Source of the DNA: a virus
Lineage: Duplodnaviria; Heunggongvirae; Uroviricota; Caudoviricetes
Virus record (IMG/VR): IMGVR_UViG_2537561603_000006
Coordinates: 1 to 38,043 of that record
Reading direction: 5' to 3' (one strand)
Length of the DNA stretch: 38,043 bases
Both the position numbers and the translations under genes were made by a program. Numbering within the stretch: the first letter of the stretch is position 1; the number at the start of each line of letters is the position of its first letter. The notes beneath the pieces are model-generated. The model was not told the origin of the DNA, did not search any database, and was given only the letters and a program-made list of their open reading frames with translations. Below are positions 5,356 to 23,638 of this stretch, piece by piece.

Positions 5356-7191
5356 TTACCTGCCAAAGCGCGTATAGCCAACATCATGGCTGACATCAAA
5401 ACCGCTGGATCGCGTTTCCATAACCCGCATACCCGGAGGCGAATTCACAAAAGAGACCTTGATCTCACCATCAACTTTTGGCGCAGAAGCTTTGTTAATC
5501 ATGAAGGGATTCGGGCCTGTGGCATCGGAGGCGTTGTTTGACTGAGCCAGATCTACCGCCGGATAAGGTGTGTATCCCCGCGCCGGTATTCCCGTCCCAT
5601 AAGCATCATAAGCACCCGCGCCCCACTGCGCAGAGTTAATGGCATCGACCGTGTCACCGGAACTGTCGGTAAACCACTCAATAATTGGCTTCAGCTTATC
5701 CCACATATCCTGAAACCACTTAACAACCGGTCCCCAGTTATTGATCACCATCCCCAGCGGCGACCAGGCAAAAACCTTCTTCAGAAGTTCCCAGCCAGCC
5801 TCAAAATAAGGACCAATGGTTTCCCAGAGCTTCTTAAAATAAGGTCCGACAACATCCCAGTTAGTGATAATTAATCCCGCAGCCAGAGCAATCGCCGTCG
5901 CAATCATGCCAATCGGCGTCATCGACATAATCCTGCTGACAATACTGATGGCACTGCCCACGCCCATCAATCCCAGTTTCAGAATCGCAAGACCGGCAGC
6001 AAGCCCGACGACGCCGCGAATACCCCGGGGATTTTCATCCGCAAACTTCGTGAATTTCTCCCCCAACACCCCCAGCCACTGCGTGATATTTTTGGCGTCA
6101 CCAGAAAATGCGCCGCCAATAGCTGCAAGACCGTTAGTTGCGGTCCCCGTCATTGCCTCCCACAGGTTGGACAGCGTACCAAGCTGAGCCTGAACACGTT
6201 TATTCAGGCTGGCCTGTTTATTCATCTTCTGCTGGCTCTGATCGTAGCCATCCTTTCCTTTATCGATTAGTGCATTGACCACCTGAAGGGTTTCGGCATC
6301 ATCACCAAATATTGCCTTAAGTACACCGGTTCGCTTAACGTCGGTCAGTTTTCGCAGCTTTGCCAGTTGCCTGAACATGTTATCAAGACCGCCAAAACTC
6401 CCTTTGCCATCAGTAAAATCGAGCTGTACCCCGAGTTTCTGGCGGGCCATGATTTTATTGACGTCCCTGATTTTCTTAACGCTTAATCCGGACTGGATAA
6501 CTTTTCGCAGGGCATTACCTGCCGACTCCCCGTTCATCCCCATCTGATCCATCATGACACTGATGGGGGCAAGACTCTGTGCAGCCTGAAGACCGTCCTT
6601 ATTCACCATCTTCAGAACAGAGCTGGTTTTAGTGAAGAATGACAGCATGTTGGTGTCGTCAACGCCCAGATAAAACGCCTTCTGAATTGTGTCGAACAGC
6701 CCCATCATGTCTTCTGAGGCCGTTCCGGTAGCATCCTGCATCTTTGCGGCAAACTCGGCAGCCGCTTCCGGTGTTTTTTTCAGTTGTACCGCAAGATAAG
6801 CTGTCGCTTTACCCACACCACCCAGAATGTTTTCTGCCGGGATCCCCTGACGCACCAGCATCTGCATCATGTTCTGGAAATCAGCCGTTGTACCGGGTAG
6901 CTGGTTACCCAGGCCAATAGCCAGTTTATTGATGTCCTGAAAGCTCTTTCCAACCTCGCCGTTCGCATCCATCATGGCGACTTTCAGCCCGGTAGCGGCG
7001 TTTTCCTGATCGGCATAAGATTTCAGGGAAAGCGTCAGCCCCGCTGCCAGTCCGCCACCAAGCGCCAGCCCACCCTGTGACGCCTCTTCCGCCTGGCGTT
7101 TAAATCCCCGGATTTTCTTTTGCATTTTCGACAGCGCGGGAGAAAGCCTGTCGACACCGGTGATCAACGCCTTAAGCTCAAATTCAGCCAT
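5356..7191 (-). CDS. Tail tape measure protein
   Basis: 611 aa, Ala/Gly-rich with a hydrophobic central segment; sits between chaperone and DNA-circulation gene. Confidence 0.85.
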   Translation of the reverse strand: MAEFELKALITGVDRLSPALSKMQKKIRGFKRQAEEASQGGLALGGGLAAGLTLSLKSYADQENAATGLKVAMMDANGEVGKSFQDINKLAIGLGNQLPGTTADFQNMMQMLVRQGIPAENILGGVGKATAYLAVQLKKTPEAAAEFAAKMQDATGTASEDMMGLFDTIQKAFYLGVDDTNMLSFFTKTSSVLKMVNKDGLQAAQSLAPISVMMDQMGMNGESAGNALRKVIQSGLSVKKIRDVNKIMARQKLGVQLDFTDGKGSFGGLDNMFRQLAKLRKLTDVKRTGVLKAIFGDDAETLQVVNALIDKGKDGYDQSQQKMNKQASLNKRVQAQLGTLSNLWEAMTGTATNGLAAIGGAFSGDAKNITQWLGVLGEKFTKFADENPRGIRGVVGLAAGLAILKLGLMGVGSAISIVSRIMSMTPIGMIATAIALAAGLIITNWDVVGPYFKKLWETIGPYFEAGWELLKKVFAWSPLGMVINNWGPVVKWFQDMWDKLKPIIEWFTDSSGDTVDAINSAQWGAGAYDAYGTGIPARGYTPYPAVDLAQSNNASDATGPNPFMINKASAPKVDGEIKVSFVNSPPGMRVMETRSSGFDVSHDVGYTRFGR

Positions 7192-17622: not shown

Positions 17623-17707
17623 TGAAGACTCTCTTTGATGTGCATGTGTGGTGCGCATAAAAAAGCCCCGCATGTGCGAGGCTAATGATTTGCATAAATT
17701 TGTTGTT

Positions 17708-17932
17708 TCAGTCTAGCTTTATAAGTTTTACGGGTTTCTCGCCTGCTTCTACACACCAGTTGTTGTACTCATGTACAGCTCGCATCAGCTCACCATCATA
17801 GTGACCAATCTTCTCTACAAGGGATGTAAGCGATTGGGGGTTGAATTCAACAATTTCTGGTGGGATGAGGTTTACATTCCCTTTCTGATGAAGGGCATAG
17901 ACAGCAGTACGTAAATCACCAATAGCTTTCAT
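17708..17932 (-). CDS. Hypothetical protein (AT-rich cargo)
   Basis: 74 aa ORF; preceded by a 25-codon ORF (17933..18010, found manually) whose stop abuts its ATG. Confidence 0.45.
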   Translation of the reverse strand: MKAIGDLRTAVYALHQKGNVNLIPPEIVEFNPQSLTSLVEKIGHYDGELMRAVHEYNNWCVEAGEKPVKLIKLD

Positions 17933-18055
17933 TCATTCAGCATGAAGATCTTTGATCTTTTCATTAAGGATTTTGCAGCGACCTATTGCTTCATAATTCA
18001 GTTCAGACATTCTGCCCTCCTATTAAAATTCGTTATCTTTAGAGATAACTCTATA

Positions 18056-18460
18056 TTAAGAATGATTTTCTTTATCCTTAAAATAATACCCAATTATAAA
18101 TCCTAATGAAGTACCAAGGGCAGTAATCATTATTGACAATACCTTTTCCAGCTCGAGTGGCTTTAAATATTGAACGTAATCATCAACACCTTTGCTCTTT
18201 AACTCTAAAGCCCAATTCACAACAGAATTATTATACCAAAGAACAAAAAGACAGCTAAAAATAAGAAGGCAAAAAAAGAACCAGAGAAACGTAATAGTTA
18301 AGGCGCTTCGTGTTTTACCATCAGTATGCTTAGAGTTAACAGCATTTTCCTCTGCTTTTCCAGCTGACTCTTCAATTTTTTTATTTTCGATCCTGGCTAC
18401 TTTTAATCTATCAAGGATGTTTCCAACATCTTCAATCGACATTTGAATTCCCTCCCGCAA
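18056..18460 (-). CDS. Hypothetical membrane protein (AT-rich cargo)
   Basis: 134 aa; hydrophobic segments ALTITFLWFFFCLLIFSCLFVLWY and VLSIMITALGTSLGFIIGYYF. Confidence 0.5.
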   Translation of the reverse strand: MREGIQMSIEDVGNILDRLKVARIENKKIEESAGKAEENAVNSKHTDGKTRSALTITFLWFFFCLLIFSCLFVLWYNNSVVNWALELKSKGVDDYVQYLKPLELEKVLSIMITALGTSLGFIIGYYFKDKENHS

Positions 18461-18743
18461 TTTTAGATAAGGAGTTCATAGCCTCAACATAGTCTGAACT
18501 TAAAGACTCATTATATTTTTCAATACTCGAAATTCCATTTTTCACAACTGGGCTAATTTTTTTGTAGAGAGCAACCTGTCCTTTTTCAAACTCAGAGAGA
18601 TTATCACCAGAGTTTTTGCGGATATCCTCAATTGAGTTCAATAGATCTGTAATAAGAACCATGTGAGCATCAGCCATCGCAGCAGATGCTGCTCTGAACT
18701 CCGCAATCTTTTCAATAGCTTGTTTGATTTTTATGTTTGACAT
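18432..18743 (-). CDS. Hypothetical soluble protein (AT-rich cargo)
   Basis: 103 aa ORF upstream of, and slightly overlapping, the membrane protein gene. Confidence 0.5.
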   Translation of the reverse strand: MSNIKIKQAIEKIAEFRAASAAMADAHMVLITDLLNSIEDIRKNSGDNLSEFEKGQVALYKKISPVVKNGISSIEKYNESLSSDYVEAMNSLSKIAGGNSNVD

Positions 18744-19004
18744 ATTATCTCCATCATATAATGTTCATATTCTCTCACTTATCATCAAAAATGACAAGCT
18801 AAGGGAACCACTTAATTTATATGTGGAAAGAATGATTAAATTTTTCAATCTTAATATATACATCACATCAATTATTAAAAGTAACAAAACACTTGTCTAC
18901 TTATAACTTTATTGTTTTTCATATTTAGGTAAGCATGAGCAATAATTATATCGTATTCTGTGTGGTATATTATATTCATCTACTAACAAGAAAAATATAC
19001 CACT

Positions 19005-19196
19005 TCAAATTGTACGTTTGTATTTCTTATGCATACCGCGCTCAACAGAGTCACCAGGAATATGGTTAATAGTCTGCTGTATATTTCTGGCCTCTTCCGT
19101 TGCCTCTACACGGTGTCCTGCTGCTGAGTGCTTAGCCGCTGCGTTAACTTCAGTGTATAACAGAGCAGTTTTAACCTCTTCTTTTACTAGTGCCAC
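19005..19196 (-). CDS. Hypothetical small protein (GTG start)
   Basis: 63 aa ORF; first codon is GTG; no clear Shine-Dalgarno; a 34-codon hydrophobic ORF (19171..19275) overlaps it in another frame. Confidence 0.3.
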   Translation of the reverse strand: MALVKEEVKTALLYTEVNAAAKHSAAGHRVEATEEARNIQQTINHIPGDSVERGMHKKYKRTI

Positions 19197-19352
19197 GGAT
19201 ACGCCCTAGGCCAACAACTCCAGCGATAACAGTGATAACCAAAGCAACCAGTCCAATAAATCTTTCGATACTCATTGCATCAGAACAGATTTTGCCAAAT
19301 TAACAGAACGGGCGTGGTATAACACTTCGAAAACACGATCAATCTGCCTCTT

Positions 19353-19814: not shown

Positions 19815-20274
19815 TTACCACCCCACCAGCCTCTTTAAATCGGGCAATCAGGTCACCGATTTTATGCTCATATTGACCGTAACCTGCACCGGGTAATGAC
19901 GCCCAGATATTGCTGCAACGATCGATAGCCTGACGGATATCACCGCGATCAATCATCGGTAAAGCACCACGCTCTTTAATCTGCTGCAATGCCACTGCGT
20001 CCTGGCTTTTGGGGGAGAAGTCTTTCAAACCAAGCTGTTTACGGTAAGCATCCCACCAGCGTGAAAGAAGCTGATAACGCCCGGCGGCTGTTGATTTGAG
20101 TTTGGGGTTTAGCGTGACAAGTTTGCGAGGGTGATCGGAGTAATCAGTAAACAGTTCGCCGCCAACAATAACATCATAACCGTGGTTACGTGTCGGTTGT
20201 CGCCCGTTATCCGTTCCTTCTGACCATGCCACCATATCAAGGAAAGCTTTACGCTGGGAATTTAGTGCCTGCAT
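19798..20274 (-). CDS. R: Endolysin, lambda R-type lytic transglycosylase
   Basis: Translation ...QRKAFLDMVAWSEGTDNGRQPTRNHGYDVIVGGELFTDYSDHPRKLVTLNPKLKSTAAGRYQLLSRWWDAYRKQ... is near-identical to lambda R as remembered. Confidence 0.95.
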   Translation of the reverse strand: MQALNSQRKAFLDMVAWSEGTDNGRQPTRNHGYDVIVGGELFTDYSDHPRKLVTLNPKLKSTAAGRYQLLSRWWDAYRKQLGLKDFSPKSQDAVALQQIKERGALPMIDRGDIRQAIDRCSNIWASLPGAGYGQYEHKIGDLIARFKEAGGVVNEVEL

Positions 20275-20277
20275 AAA

Positions 20278-20685
20278 TTACTCCTTCGAGCTACCAAATT
20301 TGTTACCGATTACTCTCATTGCAGCCCCACGAATTGCATCGACCCCGATCAACCCCACCCCACCACCAATGGCAACAGAAAGCGATTTAGGCCATCCGAC
20401 ATACTCAAGCGCGGATGCAAATGTCAGCGTCAGAGCGCCACAGAGCAAAATTTCGAGTGATTTTCGTTTCCAGCCGCCACCACCACCAAAATAGGCAATA
20501 CGCAAACCAGCCATAACAATCGACATAATCACTGCGCCCAGCGGCGTATCTCCACGCCACCAGCTCTGGAACAACTCCAGCCAGTCCGGCCAGGTATTTG
20601 GGTTATGAGGCATTTCGTCATCTCTCACCTCGCGATTATTTGCGGGTGCTGTGTTGGAAATAAAAAGGCCAAGCAACGTGGCCAC
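20278..20685 (-). CDS. Holin (lambda S-like)
   Basis: C-terminal two-thirds aligns by eye with lambda S; hydrophobic helices and charged tail; true start likely an internal Met. Confidence 0.7.
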   Translation of the reverse strand: MATLLGLFISNTAPANNREVRDDEMPHNPNTWPDWLELFQSWWRGDTPLGAVIMSIVMAGLRIAYFGGGGGWKRKSLEILLCGALTLTFASALEYVGWPKSLSVAIGGGVGLIGVDAIRGAAMRVIGNKFGSSKE

Positions 20686-20690
20686 CAGAA

Positions 20691-21743
20691 TTATTTCCCC
20701 ACCAGTTCACTTACCTCTTTCACCGTCTGGTTAAACCGATCTGACTCAAGCTCAACACCTAACGCCCGACGCCCCAGCGCCATTGCTGCTTTTATTGTGG
20801 AACCGGATCCCATAAAGAAATCAGCAACCAGATCGCCTGGTCGACTACTGGCATTAATTATTTGCCGGAGCATATCCGCCGGTTTCTCACACGGATGTTT
20901 ACCCGGGTAGAACTGAACGGGTTTATGCGTCCAGACATCGGTATAAGGCACGGAGACTGATACGGAGAAATAACGCCGGAGAGATTTAAACTCATCCAGC
21001 AAATCAGAATATTTGCGATTCAGTGAATCATAAGATGCCACCAGCTGGTGGTGTGGTTGTTCCAGTTGTTGTTCCTGAAACTTCTCTGCCACTACACGGG
21101 AAAACAGTGCCTGCAACTTCCGGTAGTCAGCCTCATTCGGCAACTGCCACTGACTGGCACCAAACCAGTGGGAAACCATATTTTTCTTACCAGTGGCTTC
21201 GGCAATCTGTTTTGCCGTTATACCCAGTTCGGCACGAGCATCCCTGAAATACGAAATCAGCGGTGCCATTATGTGCTGTTTGAGTTGACTTTCTTTTGCC
21301 GCATAGCCGTCACTTTTGCCGCGATATGGTCCCTGGTAATGTTCAGCAAACAGAACGCGTTCTGTTGCGGGAAAATATGCGCGCAGACTTTCTTTATTAC
21401 ACCCGTTCCATCGTCCGGACGGCTTCGCCCAGATAATATGGTTAAGAACGTTGAAACGTTCACGCATCATGATCTCGATATCAGATGCGAGGCGATGTCC
21501 ACAGAACAGGTAAAGGCTTCCGGCAGGTTTCAGCACCCGCCAGAACTGGGCCAGACAGTGGTCCAGCCACTTCAGGTAATCTTCGTCCCCTTTCCACTGA
21601 TTGTCCCAACCGTTGGGTTTCACCTTGAAGTACGGCGGATCGGTAACAATCAGGTCAATGGAATCATCAGGCAGGGACTGAATAAAATGCAGGCAATCAG
21701 CGTTGATTAAATCAACACTGTTTATTTTTACAGTATTTTTCAT
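20691..21743 (-). CDS. DNA methyltransferase (N6-adenine/N4-cytosine, DPPY class)
   Basis: 350 aa; motif IV ...DLIVTDPPYF... near N-terminus; no adjacent nuclease gene. Confidence 0.85.
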   Translation of the reverse strand: MKNTVKINSVDLINADCLHFIQSLPDDSIDLIVTDPPYFKVKPNGWDNQWKGDEDYLKWLDHCLAQFWRVLKPAGSLYLFCGHRLASDIEIMMRERFNVLNHIIWAKPSGRWNGCNKESLRAYFPATERVLFAEHYQGPYRGKSDGYAAKESQLKQHIMAPLISYFRDARAELGITAKQIAEATGKKNMVSHWFGASQWQLPNEADYRKLQALFSRVVAEKFQEQQLEQPHHQLVASYDSLNRKYSDLLDEFKSLRRYFSVSVSVPYTDVWTHKPVQFYPGKHPCEKPADMLRQIINASSRPGDLVADFFMGSGSTIKAAMALGRRALGVELESDRFNQTVKEVSELVGK

Positions 21744-21893
21744 GGATCAGTAAGCGTAACTCTGGTAGGCTCACTCTGCTTTTGCGCTAAAGCAGTGGGC
21801 CATGGTTCGCTTGTGACCAGTTAGCATGAGCGAATGGCTGGCAGGTGCTACCAACACCCACCAGCCGCCCATTTTCACAGCAGGAAACCGCCA

Positions 21894-22097
21894 TTACTGG
21901 CAGCGTCTGAATTTATTCCCATACCCGCCGCTATCCTTCGCCAGACCCGCCAAAACTAACTGCGTCAGTATCAACTGACACCGGGCTTCGCTTACCCCGG
22001 TAATACTCGTCATCGCACGGGGCGTTATCCACTTGTCAGCAGGTAAGAAATGAAGGACTGTGGCGGCGGTTTCTGTCATATCTTGCTGTTTTAGCAT
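21894..22097 (-). CDS. Small hypothetical protein, possible winged-helix
   Basis: 67 aa ORF between the tR'-like terminator and the methyltransferase. Confidence 0.35.
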   Translation of the reverse strand: MLKQQDMTETAATVLHFLPADKWITPRAMTSITGVSEARCQLILTQLVLAGLAKDSGGYGNKFRRCQ

Positions 22098-22217
22098 GTC
22101 TTTTTACCTTTTCTGGTTAACCTGACACACCAATAACTCTTGTCTAAAAAGCCAGCAAGATAAAAAGTCGGTATTCACCTCCACCAGCACGTTTACTGTA
22201 CTGGACCGCTTTTGGGC

Positions 22218-22246
22218 ACAAAAAAACCCGCTCGGAGGCGGGTTTA
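22218..22246 (-). terminator. Intrinsic terminator (tR'-like candidate)
   Basis: Minus-strand RNA AAACCCGCCUCCGAGCGGGUUUUUUU: GC stem plus U7 tract. Confidence 0.5.
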
Positions 22247-22356
22247 AGCTGTGTGGCGAAGTAACCACTCTTAACACGATACAATAGTTTTTGCGTACGC
22301 GTTAGCATTTTTGTTAAAGTATAAAAATGTAATTAAACCAGTATGTTATCACTACA

Positions 22357-23241
22357 ATGAAATGCATCCGAAAACATCCAGCAATAGCTTATACAGTAAT
22401 TATTTTAGTTTTTGCTTTAATATACAATTTCACTTGGAGCGTCAATCCAGATTCTTTCATTAAAAACAACGTTCTCAACTCTACACCTGTATATGATGCC
22501 GTTAATTTAGCATATGCGAACAATGAGGTAAAAAAAGAAGATCCTGTCAGTGTTTCGAGGGAAGTATTTGCAGAGCAAATTTTAACACTTACAAATCAAT
22601 TCAATAAGATAACAATTGAAAACTTAGAACTTGAAAAAACATTATCTCAACAGCAAGAAAAATTAAAACAAATTAGTGAAAGACAATCAATAAAGTGGGG
22701 CGAAAACACCAAAAAATACATAGCAGACAGTTTGAAAGATTTACACAAAACGCTTATCACTAAAAATAGTGAACGTACTGCCATAACATCTTTAAAAAAC
22801 AAAACAAATGAAAGTCAGATTAACATTATGCTGGCCGACAAAGATGAAGAAATAGCCAAAATAAACCTTGAAATAGCGTATAAAGAGAATGATGCTAATG
22901 TCTATATCTTATCTCATGTCGGCGACTTTAATGATCCAATAATCGTTAATGAGCTTGACGCAATCAATAAAGAAATTGAGAAAACAAGAACAAAAATAAT
23001 AAACAATAAAAAGAAAATAATGGAGATAAGGAATAAATCTCAATCTATGCTGGAGAAACTCAAAAAAGATGACCTTAACTTTTGGGATTTCTTATTTTAT
23101 AGCATAGGAATATCTACAACGACCACCTTTGGTGATTTGTTAGCAAATTCAAGACTTATCAGACTGATAGTTTGCGTGCAACTTTTACTATCAATTATAG
23201 TTTTAGCTAACGTAACTCAAAGATTTTTATCAAAAAAATAA
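22357..23241 (+). CDS. Membrane protein with potassium-channel-like pore loop (TM1, about 210 aa coiled-coil insert, pore helix, filter-like TTTTFGD, TM2)
   Basis: 294 aa; N-terminal TM AIAYTVIILVFALIYNF; C-terminus FWDFLFYSIGISTTTTFGDLLANSRLIRLIVCVQLLLSIIVLANV aligns position for position with the channel pore-helix/filter/inner-helix pattern; AT-rich; opposite strand to flanking phage genes. Confidence 0.6.
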   Translation: MKCIRKHPAIAYTVIILVFALIYNFTWSVNPDSFIKNNVLNSTPVYDAVNLAYANNEVKKEDPVSVSREVFAEQILTLTNQFNKITIENLELEKTLSQQQEKLKQISERQSIKWGENTKKYIADSLKDLHKTLITKNSERTAITSLKNKTNESQINIMLADKDEEIAKINLEIAYKENDANVYILSHVGDFNDPIIVNELDAINKEIEKTRTKIINNKKKIMEIRNKSQSMLEKLKKDDLNFWDFLFYSIGISTTTTFGDLLANSRLIRLIVCVQLLLSIIVLANVTQRFLSKK

Positions 23242-23248
23242 AAAACAA

Positions 23249-23268
23249 AGCCCTCAAAAATGAGGGCT
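23249..23268. terminator. Bidirectional hairpin terminator between Q and the channel-like gene
   Basis: AGCCCTCA-AAAA-TGAGGGCT perfect 8-bp stem; T-run on the minus strand after the hairpin, A/T-rich on the plus strand. Confidence 0.55.
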
Positions 23269-23278
23269 AATTTAAACC

Positions 23279-23638
23279 TTAAGATAAGAACGATAAAATC
23301 CCGTCCAAAAATCCTAGTGCAGTTTGAAGTTCTTTTCTGACAGTACCATCTGAACATTTTCGTTTCTTTGCGATTGTACGGAGTGAAATACCAATAACAA
23401 AGTGAGCAATTAATAATTCATATTCTTCTGGTTTATATTTACGCAACCGCGCCACACAACCGTCTATCATGATCCCTTCATCATCATCACACTGAAGGCG
23501 TGTTTTTTTACCATGAGGTAAAAGCCCCTTGAAACCAGCCGCTATCGGCTGCCAGTCCACACCGCTGTTATCTGCTGCTGCCCATGCTCCCCAGCGGTCT
23601 AACACCTCGTACATATCACGCATCAAATCTCTCCACAA
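23279..23638 (-). CDS. Q: Late antiterminator Q (QuuD-like)
   Basis: 119 aa; ...VLDRWGAWAAADNSGVDWQPIAAGFKGLLP... matches the DLP12 QuuD-type Q family as remembered; upstream of the lysis genes. Confidence 0.75.
   Translation of the reverse strand: MWRDLMRDMYEVLDRWGAWAAADNSGVDWQPIAAGFKGLLPHGKKTRLQCDDDEGIMIDGCVARLRKYKPEEYELLIAHFVIGISLRTIAKKRKCSDGTVRKELQTALGFLDGILSFLS

Follow-up and report, generated by a model that had tools for sequence, protein, structure and literature searches.

We examined the AT-rich island that separates the lysis cassette from the HNH endonuclease and terminase genes in a 38,043-nucleotide stretch of virus DNA (IMG/VR record IMGVR_UViG_2537561603_000006, positions 1 to 38,043; hereafter “the window”). 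The window derives from an E. coli prophage of the lambdoid, ST64B/HK97-like type. Its island very probably has three parts: a decayed spanin-like gene, an autonomous two-gene moron, and a nonsense-interrupted gene (p100) resembling Sb55 of Salmonella phage ST64B. The moron would encode a cytoplasmic helical hairpin, p103, and a two-pass inner-membrane protein, p128, working together. This central pair is the real cargo of the island, and its reading as a moron is well supported. The coordinates of all features are collected in Table 1.

To compare the pair with its relatives we collected loci from genomic (9), viral (39) and metagenomic (20) sources. The p103-like and p128-like genes were adjacent or overlapping in all 29 non-redundant loci, and p128 was directly preceded by a gene for a helical protein of about 100 aa in every non-redundant locus with upstream sequence. 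In the window the two genes overlap by 11 nt (ATGTCGATTGA). In the related enterobacterial loci the pair always lay between the lysis genes and the HNH/terminase genes. Both genes are under purifying selection, with ratios of non-synonymous to synonymous substitution rates (dN/dS) of 0.05-0.10 for p128 and 0.19-0.24 for p103 where dS was unsaturated. The existence of about 100 homologous protein clusters together with these low ratios means that the two open reading frames (ORFs) are not there by chance. Mean pairwise identity was 25% for p103, 18% for the N-terminus of p128 and 59% for the membrane core of p128.

The larger of the two proteins had been described in the initial annotation, which was made from the sequence alone, as a two-transmembrane (2TM) protein of 134 aa. 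The ORF and its two transmembrane (TM) segments were borne out, but the start is likely ATG 18442 rather than the upstream TTG, since the PHROG profile and the RefSeq annotation both begin at this ATG; the protein is then 128 aa long. Hydropathy places the TM helices at approximately residues 47-69 and 101-121 and, together with the charge distribution, points to an N-in/C-in topology with a periplasmic loop of about 30 residues. In the AlphaFold2 model (predicted local distance difference test score, pLDDT, 76) two long helices (3-83 and 98-126) flank a short one.

The family alignment showed a variable stretch over the first 40 residues, the predicted cytoplasmic N-helix, and strong conservation close to the membrane. 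R45, L48 and T49 are invariant in the sequence DGKTRSxLT just before TM1, Y70-N71 and W77 are conserved after TM1, and TM2 with the C-terminus (LGTSLGFIIGYYFK) is almost invariant. The two membrane-proximal motifs that would face the cytoplasm, TRSxLT before TM1 and GFIIGYYFK after TM2, are nearly invariant. A literature search for the GYYFK motif returned nothing.

p103 is modeled by AlphaFold2 as a two-helix hairpin (residues 2-45 and 51-101, pLDDT 79.5). Its conserved residues are R17, Y77 and Y85, which fall in two motifs, L..(F/Y)R toward the N-terminus and (E)YNxSLxxDY toward the C-terminus. Simple geometry would set R17 of helix 1 opposite Y77-Y85 of helix 2, forming one conserved patch at the open end of the hairpin. 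Profile and fold searches detected no helix-turn-helix (HTH) or ribbon-helix-helix element in p103, only the plain helical hairpin. The p103-like partners in related loci are 15-30% identical to the window protein. A word-indexed search with p103 alone returned only its own cluster, and the family alignment was therefore built from ORFs at neighboring loci. In Providencia and Xenorhabdus (loci L007, L008 and L048; proteins P0111-P0123) the partner is about 131 aa long and carries a conserved N-terminal TM segment, IFFPLxAxWMxWK. The existence of this membrane-anchored subfamily argues that the partner works at the membrane.

Several features mark the pair as an insertion with putative signals of its own. 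The spacer upstream of p103, which the initial annotation had called promoter-like, contains a candidate site with a TG-extended -10 element, and the position of the -10 appears to be conserved: 18 of 27 non-redundant loci have a hexamer with at least 5 of 6 matches to TATAAT at a distance of 33-48 nt before the ATG of the p103-like gene. Other, non-overlapping 16-nt bins contained such a hexamer in 0-9 of the 27 loci, mostly in 0-5. No Rfam family reached its gathering score in the spacer. For 23 of the 29 related loci, a canonical intrinsic terminator was predicted no more than 160 nt past the end of p128. The GC content of the module was 31-40% across the 29 loci, compared to flanks mostly at 47-58% and down to 35%; the contrast was small in the low-GC hosts of L025 (0.32 versus 0.35), L040, L008 and L048.

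The presence of the pair is also variable. Two relatives, ST64B and the prophage of mouse E. coli M9, have the same slot with lysis, Sb55 and HNH genes and lack the pair. The locus is found at 99.6% identity over the island in two complete E. coli chromosomes, and only 2 of 5426 complete E. coli genomes contained the whole island at a coverage of at least 80%. Published work describes the position upstream of the packaging genes as a hot spot for morons and immunity genes (PMC11364771). The earlier suggestion of a moron site agrees with this, the insert being low-GC cargo between the lysis cassette and HNH/terminase.

The p128 family is wide. We found homologues in 103 clusters at 90% identity, all of them named “hypothetical”, in hosts that include Serratia, Enterobacter, Klebsiella, Providencia, Pantoea, Citrobacter and Xenorhabdus. 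A HMMER scan of 1.84 billion representative sequences yielded 237 clusters at 50% identity with E values up to 0.001, all small proteins with the same motifs, and Pfam covers none of them. These reach beyond the Enterobacterales to Bacteroidota, CPR (Candidate Phyla Radiation) bacteria and one alphaproteobacterium. Metagenome scans and a second viral scan returned mostly the same enterobacterial prophages again.

The distant relatives occupy cargo positions of other mobile elements, which offers indirect clues to function. In L107 the order is integrase, Xre-HTH gene, a 93-aa helical protein and the 2TM protein; this is the only locus with an Xre HTH before the pair. L109 and L110 have an integrase, the 2TM protein and a different, 90-aa partner downstream, and L012 has a DndB- or DpdB-like gene, the 2TM protein and an 88-aa protein. 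The alphaproteobacterial copy has an 89-aa helical partner and follows rplI, with no visible mobile-element gene. As a separate observation, in Bacteroidota (L012, 5698-6369; L109, 4065-4646) the 2TM gene stands without an upstream helical partner and is followed by a conserved protein of 88-90 aa, which had no Pfam or PADLOC match.

The claim that no protein of the island matches a named functional family was upheld in profile, PADLOC, PDB and Foldseek searches. In PADLOC-DB v2, p103, p100 and the small ORFs were without a match, as were the distant relatives of p128. Neither p128 nor 50 of its distant relatives matched a holin family in Pfam or PHROGs. Matches below threshold to EcKL (18 bits), bPH_10 (14.8 bits), DUF1328 (19 bits) and 2TM_IV (14.9 bits) were set aside as compositional or hydrophobic noise. 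A PDB sequence search with the p103 and p128 profiles and with p100 found designed helical bundles, TM segments of rhodopsin and a stathmin repeat, none of them meaningful. Foldseek comparison of both AlphaFold2 models with PDB and BFVD gave best E values of 0.18-4.7 to generic hairpins (Vipp1/PspA, ESCRT-III and EsxA) that share the shape only. Within a collection of 50,697 phage records, tblastn with p103, p128 and p100 found only Klebsiella phage P7641 and ST64B-type phages, and megablast of the island against the same collection found no match.

The p128 gene is subject to recurrent frameshifts. Two Phe codons in TM1 form a T7 tract (18277-18271), and the window carries the intact T7 allele. 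The prophage lineage to which the window belongs is >99.9% identical over 20 kb, and its 1.8-kb island varies at one site only, the T7 tract. Most members of the lineage have T6, and p128 is cut to a 74-aa product (P0036). By exact protein look-up, the truncated p128 occurred in 41 contigs (104 index blocks), the intact form in 19 contigs (45 blocks) and the window-type p103 in 78 contigs. Only nine sites vary in the lineage, and all four combinations of tract length with the single-nucleotide polymorphism at 19987 occur. It follows that the tract length changed on at least two occasions or that recombination reassorted the alleles.

An independent frameshift was found in L050, an unrelated Klebsiella-type prophage, where p128 (6001-6370) has an A7-to-A8 change relative to Klebsiella phage P7641 (L003). 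p103 is intact both in the T6 lineage and in L050. In a second E. coli lineage p103, p128 and p100 are intact in 220-347 contigs; the two lineages differ by two substitutions in p103, both non-synonymous. With regard to the T6 products (P0036 and P0281), the 74-aa product keeps the N-helix and gains an out-of-frame hydrophobic tail, and a 54-aa product with the loop and TM2 is also annotated. Read from these sequences, the T6 frameshift may split p128 rather than abolish it.

The remaining ORFs of the island have a different origin. All ORFs listed in the initial annotation are present on the minus strand, but the island is not a set of independent small genes: the 34-aa and 63-aa ORFs form one frameshifted gene of PHROG 1026, and the 25-aa and 74-aa ORFs form one Sb55-like gene with a nonsense codon. 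The 34-aa ORF matches phrog_1026 at positions 5-35 of 85 (E = 5e-4) and the 63-aa ORF at positions 46-84 of 85 (E = 4.6e-10). The frame shifts directly after RGTSK, in AGT AAA AGA AGA GGT TAA, where there is an A4 run (19185-19182). Once A4 is changed to A3 both halves align to homologues without gaps, and the lesion is therefore a 1-nt homopolymer insertion. As the halves are in different frames, the gene was filed as a pseudogene. The frameshift is common to all near-identical E. coli copies.

Homologues in a single intact frame, 87-96 aa long, were found in L016, L018, L024, L050 and L003, and 43 phage records contain intact PHROG 1026 homologues, among them mEp390, HK639 and many temperate Klebsiella phages. 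Some of the intact homologues have an overlapping O-spanin annotation. The 34-aa and 63-aa ORFs align with the N-terminal and C-terminal halves of these proteins; against the L018 copy the identities are 61% and 51%, respectively. The place after the lysis genes is shared; the window copy differs in its broken frame and in having a canonical Rz/Rz1 pair already upstream. From these alignments the two ORFs are evidently a decayed gene of the lysis cassette and not cargo. A programmed +1 frameshift at AAA-AGA-AGA was considered and judged unlikely because all other lineages are in frame. At the site itself (AAA AGA AGA GGT TAA) a slippery Lys codon precedes two rare AGA codons, and some +1 return to the 63-aa frame is conceivable.

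At the other end of the island, the 25-aa and 74-aa ORFs of p100 are in the same frame, parted by the TGA alone, and match phrog_4827 at positions 1-25 and 27-95 of 96. E. coli VTB97420v has CGA in place of this TGA and an intact 100-aa protein, WP_001607219.1. By this comparison the lesion is a CGA-to-TGA nonsense mutation. p100 is 86% identical over 100 aa to Sb55 of ST64B, which has the same position directly upstream of the HNH gene and from which the window copy differs by the TGA at codon 26. The 74-aa fragment occurred in 61 contigs and intact p100 in 347. An ATG follows the stop directly (GAA TGA ATG AAA). With the two codons next to each other, termination-reinitiation could yield the 74-aa C-terminal fragment, and translation may restart at this ATG. 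A literature search on Sb55 returned nothing. The island is closed just upstream of HNH by an intrinsic terminator, which in the window follows p100 and not p128. An Rfam match to STnc100 over this terminator (17653-17746) was dropped, as it scored 23.8 bits against a gathering score of 47 and neither ST64B nor the sister E. coli locus reproduced it.

Along the minus strand the genes are ordered methylase, holin, lysozyme, Rz/Rz1, island, HNH, P27-family small terminase subunit (TerS) and large terminase subunit (TerL). Rz and Rz1 are the last genes of the holin-lysozyme-spanin cassette, so that the window has a complete S-R-Rz/Rz1 set. The longest HNH ORF begins at ATG 17673, inside the terminator stem. 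In the RefSeq annotation of its orthologue in the 99.6%-identical locus the start lies 51 nt further downstream, which gives 116 aa, and this start is more plausible.

The sharp drop in composition relative to the flanking late genes that had been reported is real, with a GC content of 0.25-0.37 in the island against about 0.55 in the packaging genes. In 400-nt windows the GC content falls from 0.55-0.58 over TerL, TerS and HNH to 0.29-0.36 over 17800-19200 and returns to 0.46-0.49 over Rz and lysozyme. By segment it is lowest in the spacer (0.249), followed by p128 (0.331), p103 (0.365), p100 (0.409), Rz (0.459) and HNH (0.567). At third codon positions it is 0.28-0.36 in the island genes versus 0.58-0.65 in the packaging genes HNH and TerL.

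Table 1. Features of the island and its flanks, in transcription order (window positions; nt, nucleotides; aa, residues).
Feature	Coordinates	Strand	Remarks
DNA methylase	21743-20691	minus	First in transcription order of the region
Lambda-family holin	20685-20278	minus	ORF with GTG start; holin proper about 20604-20278; Pfam Phage_holin_3_1
Lysozyme	20274-19798	minus	
Rz i-spanin, left flank	19814-19353	minus	Embedded Rz1 at 19621-19406; Pfam Phage_lysis E = 1.9e-39, phrog_13 E = 4.8e-66
Frameshifted spanin-like gene	19275-19005	minus	PHROG 1026 “Rz-like spanin”; small, N-terminal TM; 34-aa ORF and 63-aa GTG ORF in +1 frame
34-aa ORF	19275-19171	minus	Overlaps the 63-aa ORF
63-aa ORF (GTG)	19196-19005	minus	
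AT-rich non-coding spacer	19004-18744	minus	GC 0.25, most AT-rich part of the island; contains the promoter-like site
Promoter-like site	18797-18749	minus	Consensus scan: -35 TTGTCA 18797-18792, 17-nt gap, TG-extended -10 GAGAAT 18774-18769, Shine-Dalgarno GGAG 18752-18749
p103	18743-18432	minus	103 aa, soluble helical hairpin; PHROG 21707, E = 2.7e-48
134-aa ORF (TTG)	18460-18056	minus	Longer form of p128
p128	18442-18056	minus	128 aa, inner-membrane protein; PHROG 20796, E = 5.9e-70 from M7 of the TTG ORF
p100 (Sb55-like)	18010-17708	minus	PHROG 4827; 100 aa when intact; in-frame TGA at 17935-17933 (codon 26)
25-aa ORF	18010-17933	minus	Abuts the 74-aa ORF
74-aa ORF	17932-17708	minus	
Intrinsic terminator	17683-17664	minus	AGCCTCGC-acat-GCGGGGCT, then TTTTT; two terminator scans
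HNH endonuclease, right flank	17622-17272	minus	Pfam HNH E = 3e-16; followed by P27-family TerS, then TerL

A second AT-rich island, with a GC content of 0.30-0.36, occupies 22200-23400 upstream of the lysis genes, in the interval from the Q antiterminator (23638-23279) to the methylase and holin genes. It has a 294-aa ORF (22357-23241) on the plus strand, opposite to the late genes. The C-terminus of this ORF scored 24.5 bits for the K+-channel pore domain Ion_trans_2, above the Pfam gathering score of 22.5 bits, and the ORF had no PADLOC match. The sister E. coli locus L001 has a KAP-family NTPase in the slot where the window has the methylase and the 294-aa ORF. The island and packaging genes of L001 and the window are 97-99.6% identical, whereas the stretch from Q to the holin (20636-23577) is wholly different. 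This difference is a clear case of mosaicism at the classic Q-holin moron site.

As the best explanation of these data, we propose that the island is a composite of a dead spanin-like gene, an autonomous moron and an Sb55-like gene whose normal place is just upstream of HNH. The moron would consist of two translationally coupled genes under a sigma-70 promoter of their own, with a dedicated terminator in most relatives. p103 would dock on the cytoplasmic face or the N-helix of p128 and control it. Its own promoter would drive expression of the pair in the lysogen, with additional late expression by read-through, and the complex would act on the inner membrane in phage-phage or phage-host conflict. 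This could take the form of superinfection exclusion, abortive infection or a toxin-antidote pair with p128 as the costly effector. Taken as a whole, composite island and conflict module together, we judge this explanation to fall a little short of even probability. A conflict role for the pair, considered separately, is a tentative assignment that stands well below that mark. It is suggested by the pair's own promoter-like site, its foreign composition and its variable presence among close relatives, by the combination of a fast-evolving soluble partner with a conserved membrane core, by the cargo positions of the distant relatives, and by the repeated loss of the membrane gene while its partner persists. 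Loss of p128 with retention of p103 is the pattern expected when a costly or toxic partner goes first. In likeness to type II toxin-antitoxin systems, p103 and p128 are two small genes that overlap in the window and overlap or abut in related loci; p103 has no DNA-binding domain and p128 has no match to a toxin family.

Several observations weigh against a conflict role. Searches of Pfam, NCBIfam, PADLOC, the PHROGs labels and PDB sequences, and Foldseek searches of PDB and BFVD, gave no match to a defence, exclusion, toxin or holin protein. The sole PADLOC match, p128 to 2TM_IV (E = 0.003, 14.9 bits), has a score of the kind that hydrophobic segments are expected to give. In a mirror-tree-style comparison, p103 identity was correlated with that of the N-terminal and C-terminal parts of p128 at rho = 0.24 and 0.37, which does not discriminate. 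The promoter and terminator are consensus matches in AT-rich DNA, and the -35 elements are mostly weak. Most family members have T6-T7 tracts, as the conserved Phe-Phe is encoded by TTT TTT in an AT-rich gene. Such tracts arise automatically, and the recurrent frameshifts may therefore reflect mutational bias and neutral decay instead of a cost. The four-gamete pattern could also be produced by recombination. The slippage hot spot in p128 may then be a by-product rather than an evolved switch. Finally, the constant place beside the lysis cassette fits a role in lysis equally well.

Such a role is the main rival explanation: p128 would be a holin-like or antiholin-like protein and p103 its cytoplasmic regulator, and together they would tune the firing of the lambda-type holin in the lytic cycle. 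Systems of this kind are LydA/LydB of P1 and RI/RIII of T4, which act on the holin T. Among enterobacterial prophages, this pair invariably comes right after the lysis cassette and shares its strand, a position that guarantees late read-through from the Q-dependent promoter, and the spanin-like gene of PHROG 1026 is frequently found with it. p128 resembles class II holins in being small, N-in/C-in and two-pass, with a TM2 rich in small residues (GALGTSLG). On the other hand, neither PHROG nor Pfam gave a holin, antiholin or lysis match, and a complete S-R-Rz/Rz1 set is already present in the window. The pair has its own promoter-like site and terminator and a foreign composition, and close relatives with similar lysis and packaging modules do without it. 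In addition, the distant homologues adjoin integrases or DndB-like genes instead of lysis genes, and p128 is frameshifted in most of the otherwise intact lineage of the window. We consider a lysis-timing accessory unlikely.

Alternatively, the pair could be a factor of lysogenic conversion that alters the envelope physiology of the host (stress tolerance, transport or colonization) and has no part in conflict. The bor and lom genes of lambda are host-benefit morons of this kind. The moron architecture and lysogen-type promoter would be in keeping with such a role, as would the alphaproteobacterial copy that sits beside rplI with no mobile-element gene in view. Moreover, the membrane core shows strong conservation across Enterobacterales, Bacteroidota, CPR bacteria and the alphaproteobacterium, and this suggests a conserved cellular target rather than a fast-evolving phage protein. 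However, the whole island is rare in E. coli, the pair is often inactivated, its fast-evolving partner and N-terminus are a better fit to an arms race, and it has neither a signal peptide nor a surface-exposed domain. A host-fitness role is quite unlikely in our estimate. It could also be argued that the island is decaying baggage, no longer selected in this E. coli lineage, and that intact p103 and p128 have merely not yet been hit. Of the four genes in the island, the window already has two in broken form (PHROG 1026 by frameshift, p100 by a nonsense codon), p128 carries a frameshift in roughly two thirds of lineage members, and both p103 substitutions between the E. coli lineages are non-synonymous. 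Against this reading stand the family-wide purifying selection on p103 and p128 and their constant co-occurrence, the second E. coli lineage in which p103, p128 and p100 are intact, and the >99.9% conservation of the remaining prophage, whose structural genes are intact. We give decay little credence.

Lambdoid prophages carry immunity and virulence cargo in the slot that separates their lysis genes from their packaging genes. The pair is a compact, unannotated and obligate two-gene family in many prophages of Klebsiella, Serratia, Enterobacter, Providencia and E. coli and makes a clean experimental target, for which the T7 and T6 alleles provide a natural isogenic on/off pair in public genomes. 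The gene map is corrected as well, the RefSeq-style “hypothetical proteins” of 63 aa and 74 aa being fragments of broken genes. If the pair acts in exclusion or abortive infection, it would add a new compact family of membrane effectors to the defence repertoire of prophages; if it tunes lysis, it would represent a new class of lysis regulator. It could be speculated further that p103/p128 is the founding example of an undescribed, widespread two-component membrane system, in which a conserved 2TM effector is held in check by a fast-evolving helical hairpin, the lysogen is protected from other phages through exclusion or abortive infection at the membrane and, in E. coli, slippage in the T7 tract within TM1 serves as an on/off switch. 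We regard this as improbable.

Among known systems, class II holins and their regulators (the S21 pinholin; LydA/LydB of P1) resemble the pair in their small N-in/C-in two-TM proteins, the Gly/Ser/Thr-rich TM2, the location beside the lysis cassette and the small soluble partner. By contrast, p128 matches no holin family and lacks a dual-start motif; a lambda-family holin is encoded separately by the phage, relatives can do without the p103/p128 module, and elsewhere the module occurs away from lysis genes. The RexA/RexB system of lambda, also prophage-borne, is made up of a soluble cytoplasmic protein and a small polytopic protein in the inner membrane, and there too the soluble part evolves faster. 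In contrast to the pair, RexB has four TM segments, RexA is 279 aa long, the genes are in the immunity region and not in the late operon, and there is no homology.

The tblastn searches with p103, p128 and p100 against the phage collection gave no match in phi80, whose Tai sequences were not compared directly. In these searches no sequence similarity of the pair to Tai, gp15, Bor or Lom came to light, and the pair consists of two genes rather than a single one. In their architecture, the morons of lambdoid and HK97-like phages (the concept of Hendrix and Juhala; gp15 of HK97, bor and lom of lambda, Tai of phi80) are similar to the pair: they are inserted between late modules, have a low GC content, carry promoter-like and terminator elements of their own and vary in their presence. 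The Tai immunity genes of phi80 occupy the same genomic slot as p103/p128 (PMC11364771).

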